This document shows positions 47,263 to 53,853 of a DNA stretch of 64,000 nt, piece after piece (the first letter of the stretch is position 1; each line of letters begins with the position of its first letter). The notes beneath the pieces were generated by a model. That model saw nothing but the letters and a program-made list of their open reading frames with translations, made no database searches and was not told where the DNA came from. The DNA is from a virus (lineage: Duplodnaviria > Heunggongvirae > Uroviricota > Caudoviricetes), in IMG/VR virus record IMGVR_UViG_2684623127_000006. One strand, written 5' to 3'. The position numbers and the translations under genes are program-made.

Positions 47263-47459
47263 ATAAAGGGATAACGATGATAGTTTGAGAAAAACAGAAA
47301 TAACACTTTTGTGGCAAAGCATGGTGCCGGGTGCCTCCCGGTGAATTCAGTACCAGCACCTGAATCCGCGATTATCCCATATACCTTCTTGCTGATCGCC
47401 CCTCCGCACAGGGGGATTCACCATGCAGAAGTGTTTTTAATAAACAGCAAACAAAAAAA

Positions 47460-47627
47460 TCAAGCATTATGCAGGCTGTTTCTTTTTATCACCGGCCACA
47501 GCAATACCACAATGCCGCAGACCAGCACCCCATCCGCCAGCACCGACATGATTCTGCTGGTGAAATCCACCATCACCACCAGAAACAGCAGGAGTGCAGC
47601 CACAGTCAGGCGCAGTTTTACCGTCAC
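47460..47627 (-). CDS. Candidate small two-helix membrane peptide (55 aa) coupled to TerB-like gene
   Basis: GTG overlapping TerB stop (GTGA); MTVKLRLTVAALLLFLVVMVDFTSRIMSVLADGVLVCGIVVLLWPVIKRNSLHNA; below the ORF-track size cutoff. Confidence 0.35.
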   Translation of the reverse strand: MTVKLRLTVAALLLFLVVMVDFTSRIMSVLADGVLVCGIVVLLWPVIKRNSLHNA

Positions 47628-48085
47628 AGGTGATTCTCCAGACGAAGACCCAGAACACCGGCAATCTCTTCCAGCACCTTGCGCTCTTCCGGCTCAATTT
47701 CGCCGTCTGCCTCCGCAATGGCCACCGCCACATCCAGCACATCTTCCGCTTCACGCGTATCGTGTTTCACATCCTCGATCTCACGTAACGCCGCACGACG
47801 ACCAGTTTTAAAGTTCGTATCCAGCTGACCGATAATGGTTGCGCTAATCGCATTAATTTCTGACGTAAACGCGGACAGCGCAGGCTGATTACGCAGTACC
47901 TGTTCGATCTTCGCTTTCTCGGATGCCTCACATTCACCATCTGCACAGGCCACCAGGTATGCGGCGTTAATCACCACCTGTGCCAGATCGCGTTTTTCAA
48001 ACTTTTTAATTTCCGTTGCCGCTCTGCGGGCTTTTTTTACCAAAAATACCAAACATCGTGACGTTCCTTTGGGTGGGTGAGCCAA
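47624..48085 (-). CDS. TerB-like domain protein; 5' end disrupted relative to the copy at 1-137
   Basis: …ADGEIEPEERKVLEEIAGVLGL…; ATG at 48056 is out of frame because of an A7 run where the other copy has AAAAAGAAAA. Confidence 0.5.
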   Translation of the reverse strand: MAHPPKGTSRCLVFLVKKARRAATEIKKFEKRDLAQVVINAAYLVACADGECEASEKAKIEQVLRNQPALSAFTSEINAISATIIGQLDTNFKTGRRAALREIEDVKHDTREAEDVLDVAVAIAEADGEIEPEERKVLEEIAGVLGLRLENHL

Positions 48086-48228
48086 CGCCCGGGAGCGATC
48101 TGCCCACAGAGAAAGTCACACTGACCACTCCGTAAGCTCCCCCCCCCCGAAAGGCTCTGTGGTTGGTATGTGCCGGGCGTGGCGCAGATACAAAAAAGGC
48201 CCGCAAAAGCGAGCCGGGAAAATAAGTG

Positions 48229-48305
48229 TGGCGCGTTGTACTGGAGTCGAACCAGTGACCGATTGCTTAGAAGGCAATTGCTCTGTCCTGCTGAGCTAAA
48301 AACGC
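48229..48305 (-). tRNA. argO: tRNA-Arg (anticodon UCU)
   Basis: 77 nt; anticodon loop CTTCTAA; compensatory T-stem change versus the 307-383 copy; one acceptor-stem mismatch. Confidence 0.7.
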
Positions 48306-48318
48306 AGAATACCGATAA

Positions 48319-48395
48319 TGGACCGCCATCGGAGACTCGAACCCCGCGAAACCAGCTTCGAAGGCTGGCGTTCTATCCCGATGAGCTAATGGCGG
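48319..48395 (-). tRNA. argN: tRNA-Arg (anticodon UCG)
   Basis: 77 nt; acceptor CCGCCAT/ATGGCGG, anticodon loop CTTCGAA, T-loop TTCGAGT. Confidence 0.7.
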
Positions 48396-48402
48396 TATGT
48401 GA

Positions 48403-48478
48403 TGGTGGCCCTTGCTGGATTTGAACCAGCGGCCTGGCGATTATGAGTCGCTCGCTCTCACCACTGAGCTAAAGGGCC
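48403..48478 (-). tRNA. ileZ: tRNA-Ile2/Met (anticodon CAU), ileZ-like
   Basis: 76 nt, near-identical to 484-559. Confidence 0.75.
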
Positions 48479-48688: not shown

Positions 48689-49384
48689 TCAATCTACTTT
48701 TGCAACACTTTGCTTTGAAAATGCCGCCTTTTGTTTTGAACGCGTTCTCATTACAAACAATAAAGCCTCACTATCCAGTCGGTGAAAAATGTGTTTCATT
48801 GCAACCCAGTGACGAGTAAATGTTTTGGACCAGTTTTTAGTTGTCACTCCCACCAGTAATGCCAGCTCCTTGTATTCATAACCTTCCCCACCAAAAAGTT
48901 CTGCTTTTACTGCCTGCGCCGCCAGCCAGATTAATTTTTTCAGGCGTTCCTGCGTTTTCCCTGCAATTTTTCTGGTACCGGATTGAGTATTAAATTCATT
49001 CCACGCCCACTGTGTTATCGCGATCTGATATTCCCAACAAATACTCCCGCTGTAACACCACAACAACCAGGCTTTATGATGTTCTTCAAGAGACAGAACA
49101 GCCCGCCGCCACGATGATGTCGAAAACTCAACCGGACTGACCAGAGGAATTGACGTCACCTTCGCCAGCGATTGCTTTCCCGGGATTGGTGGATTATCCC
49201 GCGTTATCATTTTTCCAGTCACTTCATCGCGGTACCGGATTTTTTTTCGCCTGTAACGCCCTGTATCGAACATGGCATTCTCCTGCCAGGCTTCAAGCTG
49301 ACCTTTTGTTGCCCCACTCAAATCAGCGGTGGCGATAATGAGCTGCTCACGCACAAACTGTAAATAGTGGTTATTCATGCGCAC
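48689..49384 (-). CDS. Putative late-gene antiterminator (Q-like), different family from 1859-2425
   Basis: 231-aa ORF in the Q position, overlaps rusA stop. Confidence 0.4.
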   Translation of the reverse strand: MRMNNHYLQFVREQLIIATADLSGATKGQLEAWQENAMFDTGRYRRKKIRYRDEVTGKMITRDNPPIPGKQSLAKVTSIPLVSPVEFSTSSWRRAVLSLEEHHKAWLLWCYSGSICWEYQIAITQWAWNEFNTQSGTRKIAGKTQERLKKLIWLAAQAVKAELFGGEGYEYKELALLVGVTTKNWSKTFTRHWVAMKHIFHRLDSEALLFVMRTRSKQKAAFSKQSVAKVD

Positions 49385-51243: not shown

Positions 51244-51399
51244 TTACTCCTCAGGTTCGTAAGCTGTGAAGACAGCGACCTCCGTCTGGCCGGTTCGGAT
51301 TCGTACCTCGCAGAGGTCTTTCCTCGTTACCAGTGCCGTCACTATGACGGTAATACAGATGACGATCAGGGCGATTAACATCGCCTTTTGCTGCTTCAT
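51244..51399 (-). CDS. hokD: HokD/RelF type I toxin
   Basis: 51 aa MKQQKAMLIALIVICITVIVTALVTRKDLCEVRIRTGQTEVAVFTAYEPEE. Confidence 0.85.
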   Translation of the reverse strand: MKQQKAMLIALIVICITVIVTALVTRKDLCEVRIRTGQTEVAVFTAYEPEE

Positions 51400-51864
51400 A
51401 GCCTGCTTCTCCTTGCCTTTCGGCGCGTAAGAGGCTAACCTACATGTGTCTAGCATGAAATTGGCCTCAGATTAATGTTAGGCGTCTTGCAGGACGCGTA
51501 ATGTTAACTGGGGCTTTTCTCTGTCTGCCTTACGGTGGCATGCCCGAGGCAGACAGCCTCAAGCACCCGCAGCAATTCTACTTAACTCTCGCTTTACCGC
51601 AAACCGTTTTTACCCGATATGGGAATTCCCATATCGTAATGAATTCAGTTCCCTAGTCGATCCATCAAAAACACAACCAGGCAGTAAACGCCCACAACAG
51701 CAATAACAGCCAGCGCACCTTCCATTGCCAGTGAAATATCATCCGACATATTCCCTCCTTTGGTGTGAATCCCGGCGAACGTTTTTACCCCCACCGACAA
51801 ATAACATATACTAAAAAATCAATAGCTATAGCAACGCCTGTAATTGCAAAGGCTTCAGGCCAGA

Positions 51865-52639: not shown

Positions 52640-52966
52640 ATGACTAAAAATACACGTTTTTCCCCCGAGGTCCGTCAACGGGCAGTCCGTATGGTTCTGG
52701 AAAGTCAGGGCGAATATGACTCACAATGGGCGGCAATTTGTTCCATTGCCCCAAAGATTGGCTGTACACCAGAGACTCTGCGTGTGTGGGTTCGTCAGCA
52801 TGAGCGGGATACCGGGGGCGGTGATGGTGGACTCACCACCGCTGAACGTCAGCGTCTGAAAGAGCTGGAACGTGAAAATCGTGAACTGCGCCGCAGTAAC
52901 GATATCCTTCGCCAGGCTTCCGCTTATTTTGCGAAGGCGGAGTTCGACCGCCTCTGGAAAAAATAA
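52640..52966 (+). CDS. IS3-family transposase OrfA
   Basis: 108 aa [26 protein letters not shown]…. Confidence 0.85.
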
Positions 52967-53853
52967 TGCCGCTGCTGGATAAGCTGCGTGAGCAGTACGG
53001 GGTCGGACCGGTATGCAGTGAACTGCATATTGCCCCGTCAACGTATTACCACTGTCAGCAACAGCGACATCATCCGGATAAACGCAGTGCCCGTGCGCAG
53101 CGCGATGACTGGCTGAAGAGAGAGATACAGCGCGTATACGATGAAAATCATCAGGTGTACGGTGTGCGTAAAGTCTGGCGCCAGTTGTTACGCGAAGGTA
53201 TCAGGGTGGCCAGATGTACAGTGGCGCGCCTCATGGCGGTTATGGGACTTGCCGGTGTTCTCCGGGGTAAAAAGGTCCGTACTACCGTCAGCCGGAAAGC
53301 CGTTTCCGCAGGCGACCGCGTAAACCGTCAGTTCGTGGCAGAACGTCCTGACCAGCTGTGGGTGGCTGATTTTACTTACGTCAGCACATGGCAGGGCTTC
53401 GTCTATGTGGCGTTCATCATTGATGTGTTTTCCGGATGTATCGTGGGGTGGCGAGTCTCATCGTCTATGGAAACGACATTCGTGCTGGATGCACTGGAGC
53501 AGGCGTTGTGGGCCCGTCGGCCGTCCGGCACAGTCCATCACAGTGATAAAGGTTCTCAGTATGTATCACTGGCCTATACGGAGCGACTAAAAGAAGCAAA
53601 ACTGCTGGCATCAACAGGGAGTACAGGTGACTCGTATGACAACGCGATGGCGGAGAGCATCAATGGTCTTTACAAAGCGGAGGTAATACACCGTAAGAGC
53701 TGGAAAAACCGTGCAGAAGTGGAACTGGCCACACTCACGTGGGTGGACTGGTATAACAATCGACGATTGCTGGGAAGGCTGGGTCATATCCCTCCGGCAG
53801 AAGCAGAAAAAGCTTATTATGCTTCCATCAGAAACGATGATCTGGCAGCCTGA
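52966..53853 (+). CDS. IS3-family transposase OrfB (integrase core, DDE)
   Basis: 295 aa overlapping orfA end. Confidence 0.85.
   Translation: MPLLDKLREQYGVGPVCSELHIAPSTYYHCQQQRHHPDKRSARAQRDDWLKREIQRVYDENHQVYGVRKVWRQLLREGIRVARCTVARLMAVMGLAGVLRGKKVRTTVSRKAVSAGDRVNRQFVAERPDQLWVADFTYVSTWQGFVYVAFIIDVFSGCIVGWRVSSSMETTFVLDALEQALWARRPSGTVHHSDKGSQYVSLAYTERLKEAKLLASTGSTGDSYDNAMAESINGLYKAEVIHRKSWKNRAEVELATLTWVDWYNNRRLLGRLGHIPPAEAEKAYYASIRNDDLAA

Follow-up and report, generated by a model that had tools for sequence, protein, structure and literature searches.

A tciA-tciB gene pair with a putatively structured leader in the Shiga-toxin slot of an Escherichia coli O157:H7 lambdoid prophage

The tciA-tciB gene pair, named in bacteriophage P1, and the stx2AB cassette of the Shiga-toxin (Stx) phage 933W are the closest described counterparts, the one in content and the other in position, of a locus that we analysed at positions 47460-48085 of a 64,000-nucleotide (nt) stretch of tailed-phage DNA (IMG/VR record IMGVR_UViG_2684623127_000006; the whole stretch is hereafter "the window"). 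The window is 100% identical to many Escherichia coli O157:H7 chromosomes and contains parts of two lambdoid prophages, A and B, with the late genes of both on the minus strand. At this locus prophage B carries tciA, encoding a TerB-family protein, followed by the small membrane-protein gene tciB and preceded by a conserved leader.

In phage P1, tciA-tciB(-tciC) comprises a TerB-like gene of ~143 amino acids (aa), then a two-helix DUF3927 gene of ~54 aa whose start overlaps the preceding stop, all situated among tRNA genes; the window pair is built in the same way, its TciA being 51% identical to that of phage P1 and its TciB 58% identical over a 31-aa core. The two loci differ in that phage P1 has a third small membrane gene, tciC, whereas no such gene follows tciB here and a small RNA (sRNA)-like element of the STnc100 family is found instead; and in that the window pair lies in a lambdoid late-operon moron site. 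The gene pair is therefore not new: it is named in phage P1, falls into PHROG 632 and PHROG 1470, is annotated in RefSeq, and is labelled tciA/tciB in the GenBank/RefSeq records of phages JLK-2012 (91% DNA identity) and PPyecE (as 'TciA/TerB-like'). CRISPR interference has found all three tci genes of phage P1 to be non-essential (PMC10695390), and papers on D6-like and P1-like elements treat the tci genes as untested morons of the tRNA region (PMC6799933, PMC9603915), with tciABC counted among the variable regions of the P1-like elements (PMC9603915). Solo phage terB genes have been mentioned repeatedly but not tested, and published comments have doubted their activity (PMC8421299); in the literature that we searched there was no tellurite test of a phage TerB or of TciA.

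The position of the window pair also has a precedent. The PR'-proximal moron insertion site has been known since Tree et al. 2014, with cargo in the Sakai prophages Sp3, 4, 5, 9, 10, 11, 15 and 17 and sRNAs downstream (PMC4104026). The stx2AB cassette of 933W is found at the same insertion point, after pT-ileZ-argN-argO and a terminator and before an STnc100-like region and nanS-p; tciAB differs from it in being cargo unrelated to Shiga toxin, and in having a putatively structured leader of its own.

Among bacterial proteins, TciA is comparable to TerB of the terZABCDE operon (Klebsiella KP-TerB, 2JXU) in family, size, predicted helical fold and paired ADG...E motifs. It differs in being phage-borne and alone, without TerZ, TerA, TerC, TerD or TerE, and in that a small hairpin membrane protein takes the place of TerC as its partner. 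A second parallel is DjlA (a transmembrane helix, a TerB-like domain and a J domain), which likewise has a TerB-like domain at the inner membrane and to which TciA has a weak NCBIfam match. Unlike DjlA, TciA has no J domain, its membrane element is a separate polypeptide and the score is far under the 162-bit cut-off.

The tciA-tciB pair in the Shiga-toxin slot

Our finding is that a tciA-tciB copy occupies the PR'-proximal moron site of an O157:H7 lambdoid prophage, in exactly the position that stxAB holds in Stx phages. A sequence-only reading of the window had proposed such a slot from the order of the late region (Q, tR', tRNAs, cargo, nanS-p-like esterase, holin), and every element of that order was found on the minus strand:

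48689-49384, minus strand: gene for a Q-family late antiterminator (Pfam Phage_antiter_Q PF06323, 7e-92)
48705-48677, minus strand: PR'-like -35/-10 elements (consensus scan)
48625-48602, minus strand: tR'-like hairpin (consensus scan)
48516-48488, minus strand: pT-like promoter ahead of the tRNA genes (consensus scan; 933W homology)
48478-48403, minus strand: tRNA-Ile2(cat) (ARAGORN)
48395-48319, minus strand: tRNA-Arg(tcg) (ARAGORN)
48305-48229, minus strand: tRNA-Arg(tct) (ARAGORN)
48215-48198, minus strand: intrinsic-terminator-like hairpin 3' of the last tRNA, the last element in common with 933W before the cassette
48052-47624, minus strand: tciA, TerB-family, 142 aa from a TTG (Pfam TerB, PHROG 632, 2JXU profile, RefSeq WP_001303509.1)
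47627-47460, minus strand: tciB, DUF3927, 55 aa (Pfam PF13064, PHROG 1470, WP_000216653.1)
47455-47283, minus strand: STnc100-family sRNA-like element (Rfam RF02076, 101.8 bits)
47258-47240, minus strand: terminator-like hairpin ahead of the esterase gene
47145-45295, minus strand: gene for a nanS-p-like SASA carbohydrate esterase, which bounds the slot on its downstream side (Pfam DUF1737, SASA, DUF6645; 933W esterase homology)
44846-44640, minus strand: class II holin gene

By blastn, the segment 48516-48181 (pT, tRNAs and terminator) is 92% identical to the pT-ileZ-argN-argO region of 933W. The homology stops at 48181 and restarts at 47444, in the sRNA region and then the esterase gene, and the corresponding gap in 933W is stxA2-stxB2; the slot suggested by the sequence-only reading is thus bracketed by the same break and resumption of homology, with stxAB there and tciAB here. 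Upstream of the cargo is the ileZ-argN-argO terminator and downstream of it the sRNA/nanS-p region, and both flanks are homologous to those of an Stx phage. The STnc100-like element, which begins 5 nt downstream of the tciB stop codon, ahead of the hairpin at 47258-47240, is common to Stx phages downstream of stxB, and so belongs to the shared flank and not to the cassette. It is probably the counterpart of the PasD/STnc100-type prophage sRNAs found beside a sialate esterase gene (bioRxiv 10.64898/2026.05.13.724894). Anti-sRNAs of the AsxR/AgvB type had no match in the spacer after tciB, and TerC, TerD and TerE are absent at the locus, where the neighbours of tciA are the tRNAs, tciB, the sRNA-like element and the esterase gene.

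TciA, predicted to be all-helical, is a full-length homologue of ter-operon TerB with two ADG..E motifs, which upholds the TerB-like assignment made from the sequence. Its residues 41-148 match Pfam TerB PF05099 at E 7.7e-14 (52.4 bits, where the cut-off is 24.4), the protein falls in PHROG 632, 'tellurite resistance' (2.6e-65), and a profile of 17 homologues searched against the PDB aligned residues 12-137 of 143 with chain residues 18-144 of Klebsiella TerB 2JXU_A (E 8.9e-15). The two acidic ADG...E motifs (D38, G39, E45 and D116, G117, E123) are invariant or nearly so in the 17 homologues. An AlphaFold2 model of TciA has seven helices (mean predicted local distance difference test, pLDDT, 83.8), and its top Foldseek matches in the PDB were the TerB-superfamily structures 2H5N and 2OU3 (probability 1.0 and 0.97; template-modelling score ~0.5, E 0.03-0.5); we rest the identity on the sequence profile in preference to these structure scores. 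NCBIfam gave weak, sub-threshold matches only, to the TerB region of DjlA (E 5.7e-7, 29 bits; cut-off 162) and to YmfL.

TciB, of 55 aa with two hydrophobic helices, matches Pfam DUF3927 PF13064 (62.6 bits against a cut-off of 25, E 3.3e-17) and PHROG 1470, 'TciB-like' (5.6e-30), and is RefSeq WP_000216653.1. Its GTG start at 47627 lies inside the GTGA that ends the TerB open reading frame (ORF), with GGAG 8 nt upstream. This coupled small ORF, which had been noticed in the letters alone, proved to be a conserved family member: among the 82 related loci with enough downstream DNA, tciB lies directly 3' of tciA in 81 and the GTGA overlap is present in 75. Relatives came from a GTDB scan (8 loci, all close) and from an IMG/VR scan that returned matches of at least 94% identity only, the distant ones being taken individually from GenBank phage records. 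The ratio of non-synonymous to synonymous polymorphism (pN/pS) is 0.057 for tciA (36 related alleles) and 0.32 for tciB (codons 1-47, 16 alleles). With these ratios, and with both products above their Pfam cut-offs, tciA and tciB are not chance ORFs.

A DUF3927-type ORF follows a TerB-like gene in phage P1, the N4-like phage Pollock, the Erwinia jumbo phage ChrisDB, Pantoea phage LIET2, Salmonella phage Arash, Pseudomonas phage ZY21 and a Klebsiella phage; in P1, JLK-2012, Pollock, LIET2 and Arash the start of the second gene overlaps or abuts the stop of the first. The two genes co-travel in many unrelated phage lineages under purifying selection. They are repeatedly found in or beside phage tRNA clusters, as in P1 (L093), D6, JLK-2012 (L001), ChrisDB (L094), ZY21 (L101), a further locus (L010) and both prophages of the window (229-559 and 48229-48478); this association across P1-like, lambdoid, jumbo and Nickievirus lineages could mean that the lineages share an accessory hot-spot, or else that tRNAs and cargo travel as one module.

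Some variants of the arrangement were seen besides. Two database entries, P0041 (of 197 aa) and P0094 (of 170 aa), have TciA and TciB joined in one ORF (PF05099 + PF13064), which small indels at the GTGA junction would explain, whether these are sequencing errors or real fusions. Pseudomonas phage AF (L095, 1932-2153) has an unannotated ORF of 73 aa that has a single hydrophobic helix and an ATGA overlap with the stop of its TerB-like gene, an analogue of tciB that is not homologous to it. Vibrio phage vB_VpaP-MS02 (L100, 1-2426) has a mini ter cluster, TerD-hypothetical-TerC-TerB, without DUF3927, and is the sole phage that we saw with TerC beside TerB.

A decaying and an intact copy

The copy in prophage B is damaged, and that in prophage A is not. 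Two further features are needed here:

48038-48032, minus strand: A7 run in the tciA start, one A above the A6 of intact alleles
1-137, minus strand: 5' end of the intact tciA of prophage A, with its ATG at 137-135 and the rest of the gene running off the window

The ORF at 47624-48085 listed for the sequence-only reading is a mechanical, TTG-started frame of 153 aa. The ancestral ATG of copy B (48056-48054) is put out of frame by the A7 run, so that it reads MFGIFGKKSPQSGNGN and meets a stop after 16 codons; 4 nt past the ATG, a TTG in frame with the gene (48052) yields the 142-aa product which RefSeq annotates as TerB family (WP_001303509.1) and does not call a pseudogene. Intact alleles begin ATG TTT GGT ATT TTT GGT AAA AAA GCC (A6) or ATG TTT GGA ATC TTC AAA AAG AAA ACC. 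In 554 complete E. coli records, among them O157:H7, O55:H7, O111, O26 and O103, the best match was to the exact 90-nt A7 start, and in 8 it was to the A6 version with the same flanks; the frameshift, which the earlier reading had pointed out, is for this reason real and not a sequencing artefact. The 142-aa product is present on at least 993 contigs. All five of the non-O157 carriers that we fetched have, in addition, a GAG-to-TAG nonsense codon and two missense changes in tciA, which is annotated as a pseudogene by the NCBI Prokaryotic Genome Annotation Pipeline, together with an intact tciB. The leader of copy B has itself changed, with a G10 run (48148-48139) where intact copies have GGGGGUG.

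Prophage A, on the other hand, has an ATG at 137 that opens the intact frame MFGIFKKKTRRAATEIKK, so that the start placed there beforehand was correct and is that of tciA. In the near-colinear strain 272 the full prophage A copy encodes a 143-aa TerB-family protein (WP_001302123.1) and a 55-aa DUF3927 protein (WP_000216636.1). Strain FRIK2533 was tried as a colinear reference for the window and set aside, as it is not colinear whereas strain 272 is.

Copy B of tciA is thus decaying: the A7 insertion unhooks the ATG and the G10 run disrupts the leader, while tciB remains intact and the pair of prophage A is whole. The A7 allele looks degenerate rather than regulated. Of the identity, slot and decay of copy B, taken together, we are highly confident. 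A second 1-nt deletion (ATGTTTG-TATTTTTGG), frameshifting tciA within the first ten codons, was seen in the E. coli IMG/VR contigs L117, L157, L199, L068, L078 and L091, and could be either real mutations or assembly errors.

The leader of tciA

The new point of this analysis, and its most interesting item, is the unannotated conserved leader. Approximately 105 nt from the tRNA terminator to the tciA start are conserved in prophages of E. coli, Pantoea, Pseudescherichia and Franconibacter, in a Klebsiella phage and in an Erwinia jumbo phage. The leader is kept even where the TciA proteins are just 30-49% identical, and is more conserved than the coding sequence. Its predicted parts, which include an anti-Shine-Dalgarno (anti-SD) sequence and the Shine-Dalgarno (SD) sequence of tciA, and its relatives in the window are:

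48169-48054, minus strand: predicted structured leader ahead of tciA in copy B (107.8 bits with covariance model R1)
48162-48155 and 48111-48104, minus strand: arms of predicted helix P1, copy B
48154-48150, minus strand: anti-SD CCUUU, copy B
48083-48075, minus strand: 3' arm of predicted helix X, copy B
48070-48066, minus strand: SD AAAGG, copy B
247-135, minus strand: intact leader of prophage A, copy A (covariance model, 119 bits)
43551-43434, minus strand: type II paralogous leader ahead of the P22_AR_N antirepressor-like gene (covariance model, 33.2 bits, E 7e-7)
43436-42867, minus strand: P22_AR_N antirepressor-like gene (Pfam)

At the gathering threshold no Rfam family matched the leader anywhere in the window (copy B being covered by this search only), and a permissive Rfam search (E up to 10) of window positions 1-330, which hold the copy A leader, gave noise only and no cis-regulatory family.

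RNAalifold predicted a long-range helix X, pairing GGUGAGCC with GGCUCACC, extended in such a way that CCUUU pairs with the SD AAAGG (UUU with AAA, and C with G, at the SD). In helix P1 the 8 nt immediately upstream of the anti-SD pair with the apical region, and its arms occur in five compensated versions: CCACAGAG/CUCUGUGG, CCGUAGAG/CUCUACGG, AACCACAA/UUGUGGUU, CCGCAGAG/CUCUGCG and CAGAGAG/CUCUCUG. Helix P1 cannot coexist with the full X + P3 hairpin, and this suggests alternative folds. MAFFT had misplaced the 3' arm of helix P1 in divergent leaders, weakening a first pair count, and a covariance model (R1) was used instead, built on helix P1 and the apical hairpin only, so that helix X was left unfitted. 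On 68 distinct rows, after removal of 7 reverse-strand artefact matches, helix X was 94% paired (33-55% when slid) with double changes in 7/18 pairs; P3 was 86% paired (29-58% when slid); and helix P1, to which the columns were fitted, was 98% paired with double changes in 6/8 pairs. The helices are therefore compensated, and one of them includes the SD. The minimum free energy (MFE) fold is the SD-sequestered hairpin in three leader types.

Model R1 gave 85 strong matches, of which 84 stand ahead of tciA (intact or frameshifted) or of alternative cargo genes, the other (L284) lying at a contig end. In other phage contigs the leader also precedes, in the equivalent slot, a gene for an NMT1/phosphonate-binding-like periplasmic protein. 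Upstream of tciA of phage P1 the R1 leader was not detected. Weaker paralogues of R1 include the type II leader of the window (43551-43434), and others before unrelated proteins after lysis genes. The type II leader has the same architecture with other helix sequences, and its MFE fold sequesters the SD; an equivalent is found ahead of ant in 933W, between endolysin and spanin, and the antirepressor-like gene of the window is likewise downstream of endolysin.

Leaders that sequester the SD and have alternative or metastable folds are those of hok mRNA and of the MS2 maturation gene. The tciA leader resembles these in that a long-range helix would occlude the SD while a helix transcribed earlier, and here covarying, would compete with it. 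It has no sequence relationship to them. From the compensated pairing, we consider that the leader is probably a real cis-acting RNA structure. More tentatively, it may belong to a family, not described before, of portable two-state leaders that would control the translation of late-operon cargo genes in enterobacterial phages, with TciA-TciB as a TerC-independent, membrane-tethered TerB module acting on the host envelope; the proposed reach of that family, as part of the same tentative reading, would take in tciA, the gene for the NMT1-like periplasmic protein, the P22_AR_N gene (also in 933W) and genes for several proteins of unknown function.

Proposed expression and function, and alternatives

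By consensus scan there is no sigma-70-like promoter between the tRNA terminator and the tciA ATG. Because the cassette lies behind that terminator, without its own promoter, in a Q-antiterminated transcript, its products would be made mainly in lytic growth, like Stx2. Within that transcript, translation of tciA might be gated by the leader: helix X, with P3, would pair the anti-SD CCUUU to the SD AAAGG; and the mutually exclusive helix P1, formed first during transcription, would leave the SD free. We suggest that TciB could be an inner-membrane partner that holds the TerB-fold protein TciA at the cytoplasmic face of the membrane, by analogy with the role of TerC in ter operons and the N-terminal transmembrane helix of DjlA. 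The pair might then serve the phage during infection, either in adjusting membrane or ion stress, or in blocking superinfection or envelope-sensing defences. Its presence in virulent N4-like and jumbo phages was counted for a benefit to the phage, not the lysogen, as were the CRISPR interference result in phage P1 and the lack of a promoter-like site ahead of tciA; and exclusion or counter-defence is plausible because TerB domains occur in Dionysus, Shango and Bunzi, for which membrane surveillance is proposed. We regard such a membrane-tether, phage-benefit function, which is drawn by analogy, as a fair conjecture with slightly less than even odds. The probability of the explanation as a whole we put at about 0.6.

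Several points weigh against it. The literature searched contained no experiment with TciA or TciB, whose names derive from homology alone. The fold scores of TciA are moderate only, 2JXU itself being absent from the Foldseek PDB matches. The helix P1 statistics on alignment A5 were taken from an alignment fitted to helix P1 itself; the single-sequence MFE fold of copy A, the E. coli-type leader, is a different one; and z-scores are modest (-1.2 to -3.1). Low-level read-through from the tRNA promoter may occur in lysogens. Finally, phages 434 and 2B8 have TciB without TciA, and there are TerB-like phage genes without a small membrane ORF, such as that of Vibrio phage K481 (in which TerC is also absent), so that the TciA-TciB partnership is not obligatory.

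Might the prophage instead protect its lysogen, in the way of TerB, from tellurite, colicins or oxidative stress, which is what the name tci suggests? In its favour, TciA is a genuine homologue of TerB, ter operons are associated in the literature with tellurite, colicin and phage resistance, and the upstream tRNA promoter could supply read-through. Against this, the cassette lacks the other ter genes, and solo phage terB genes have met with the published doubt cited above (PMC8421299); obligately lytic phages carry the pair; it lies behind a terminator in a late operon; and the allele decays in many Stx-producing E. coli lineages. Given the missing ter genes, this late position, the lytic phages that carry the pair and a decay that is tolerated, tellurite resistance of the lysogen is unlikely, and such lysogenic conversion in general seems to us quite improbable. 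A role in defence or superinfection exclusion, with TciA/TciB sensing or blocking phage at the membrane in the manner of Dionysus, Shango and Bunzi, draws on the TerB domains of those validated systems and the membrane surveillance proposed for them (bioRxiv 10.1101/2025.09.30.679545), on the partner being a membrane protein and on the variability of the tciABC region in P1-like elements (PMC9603915). However, PADLOC-DB v2 gave no significant match (for TciA the best was PDC-S48, E 0.005, 13.9 bits; for TciB there was none), the cassette has no effector-like gene and its late-operon place opposes expression in the lysogen. Exclusion during lytic growth is still compatible with that place and then merges with the phage-benefit explanation that we prefer; as a separate account, we think defence unlikely.

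The other two alternatives concern the nucleic acid itself. If the A7 run were a programmed or phase-variable switch, +1 ribosomal or transcriptional slippage would restore MFGIFGKKARR... and copy B would be regulated rather than broken; tRNA-Lys could re-pair perfectly after a +1 slip, the allele is widespread, and A6 occurs with identical flanks in 8 records. The run length is constant, though, at A7 in all 554 records, the five non-O157 carriers have their nonsense and missense changes, the leader of the same copy is mutated too, and an independent 1-nt deletion affects the same region in other contigs, all of which makes a switch highly improbable. The leader, for its part, could be a DNA-level boundary kept for cassette exchange by homologous recombination and not an RNA regulator, given that it is better conserved than the coding sequence, stands before TciAs of 30-49% identity as well as before unrelated genes, and is analogous to mobile regulatory cassettes that T4-type phages carry (PMC2839356). 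Yet in three leader types that differ in helix sequence, compensatory changes preserve the pairing of P1, X and P3, and the SD itself takes part in pairing; DNA-boundary and RNA roles can coexist, and a boundary role in place of RNA regulation is, we judge, rather unlikely.

The gene pair as such leaves the existing picture unchanged, being a widespread, annotated accessory cassette in the Shiga-toxin slot, with copy B partly degraded. Nevertheless, few phage accessory pairs without experimental work are as widely shared as tciAB, and a constant membrane-protein partner, together with the lack of TciB in the sole phage that has TerC, offers a concrete hypothesis; O157:H7, with one intact and one decaying copy, has a natural control built in for work on expression and phenotype. 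The leader marks cargo boundaries in a region that controls Stx production and, if it is a true switch, would explain how cargo genes can be under separate translational control within one very long Q-antiterminated transcript.

Other features of the two prophages were observed in passing. In prophage A there are just two tRNA genes, for tRNA-Ile2(cat) and tRNA-Arg(tct), with a spacer of ~100 nt (384-483, minus strand) where prophage B has tRNA-Arg(tcg); this spacer may be a decayed argN. Between a DUF1133 gene and the tRNAs, prophage A has a helix-turn-helix gene (~588-1300, minus strand; WP_000301797.1 in strain 272), a cargo of the late-promoter region. Both prophages carry hok/sok-type loci (4853-5027 and 51394-51568, minus strand; Rfam sok, 113-117 bits) and DicF sRNA genes (12249-12300 and 59727-59778, plus strand; 75-77 bits), and an ALIL pseudoknot, the frameshift signal of the IS3 family, at 52921-53037 (plus strand) marks an insertion sequence near 52.9 kb.

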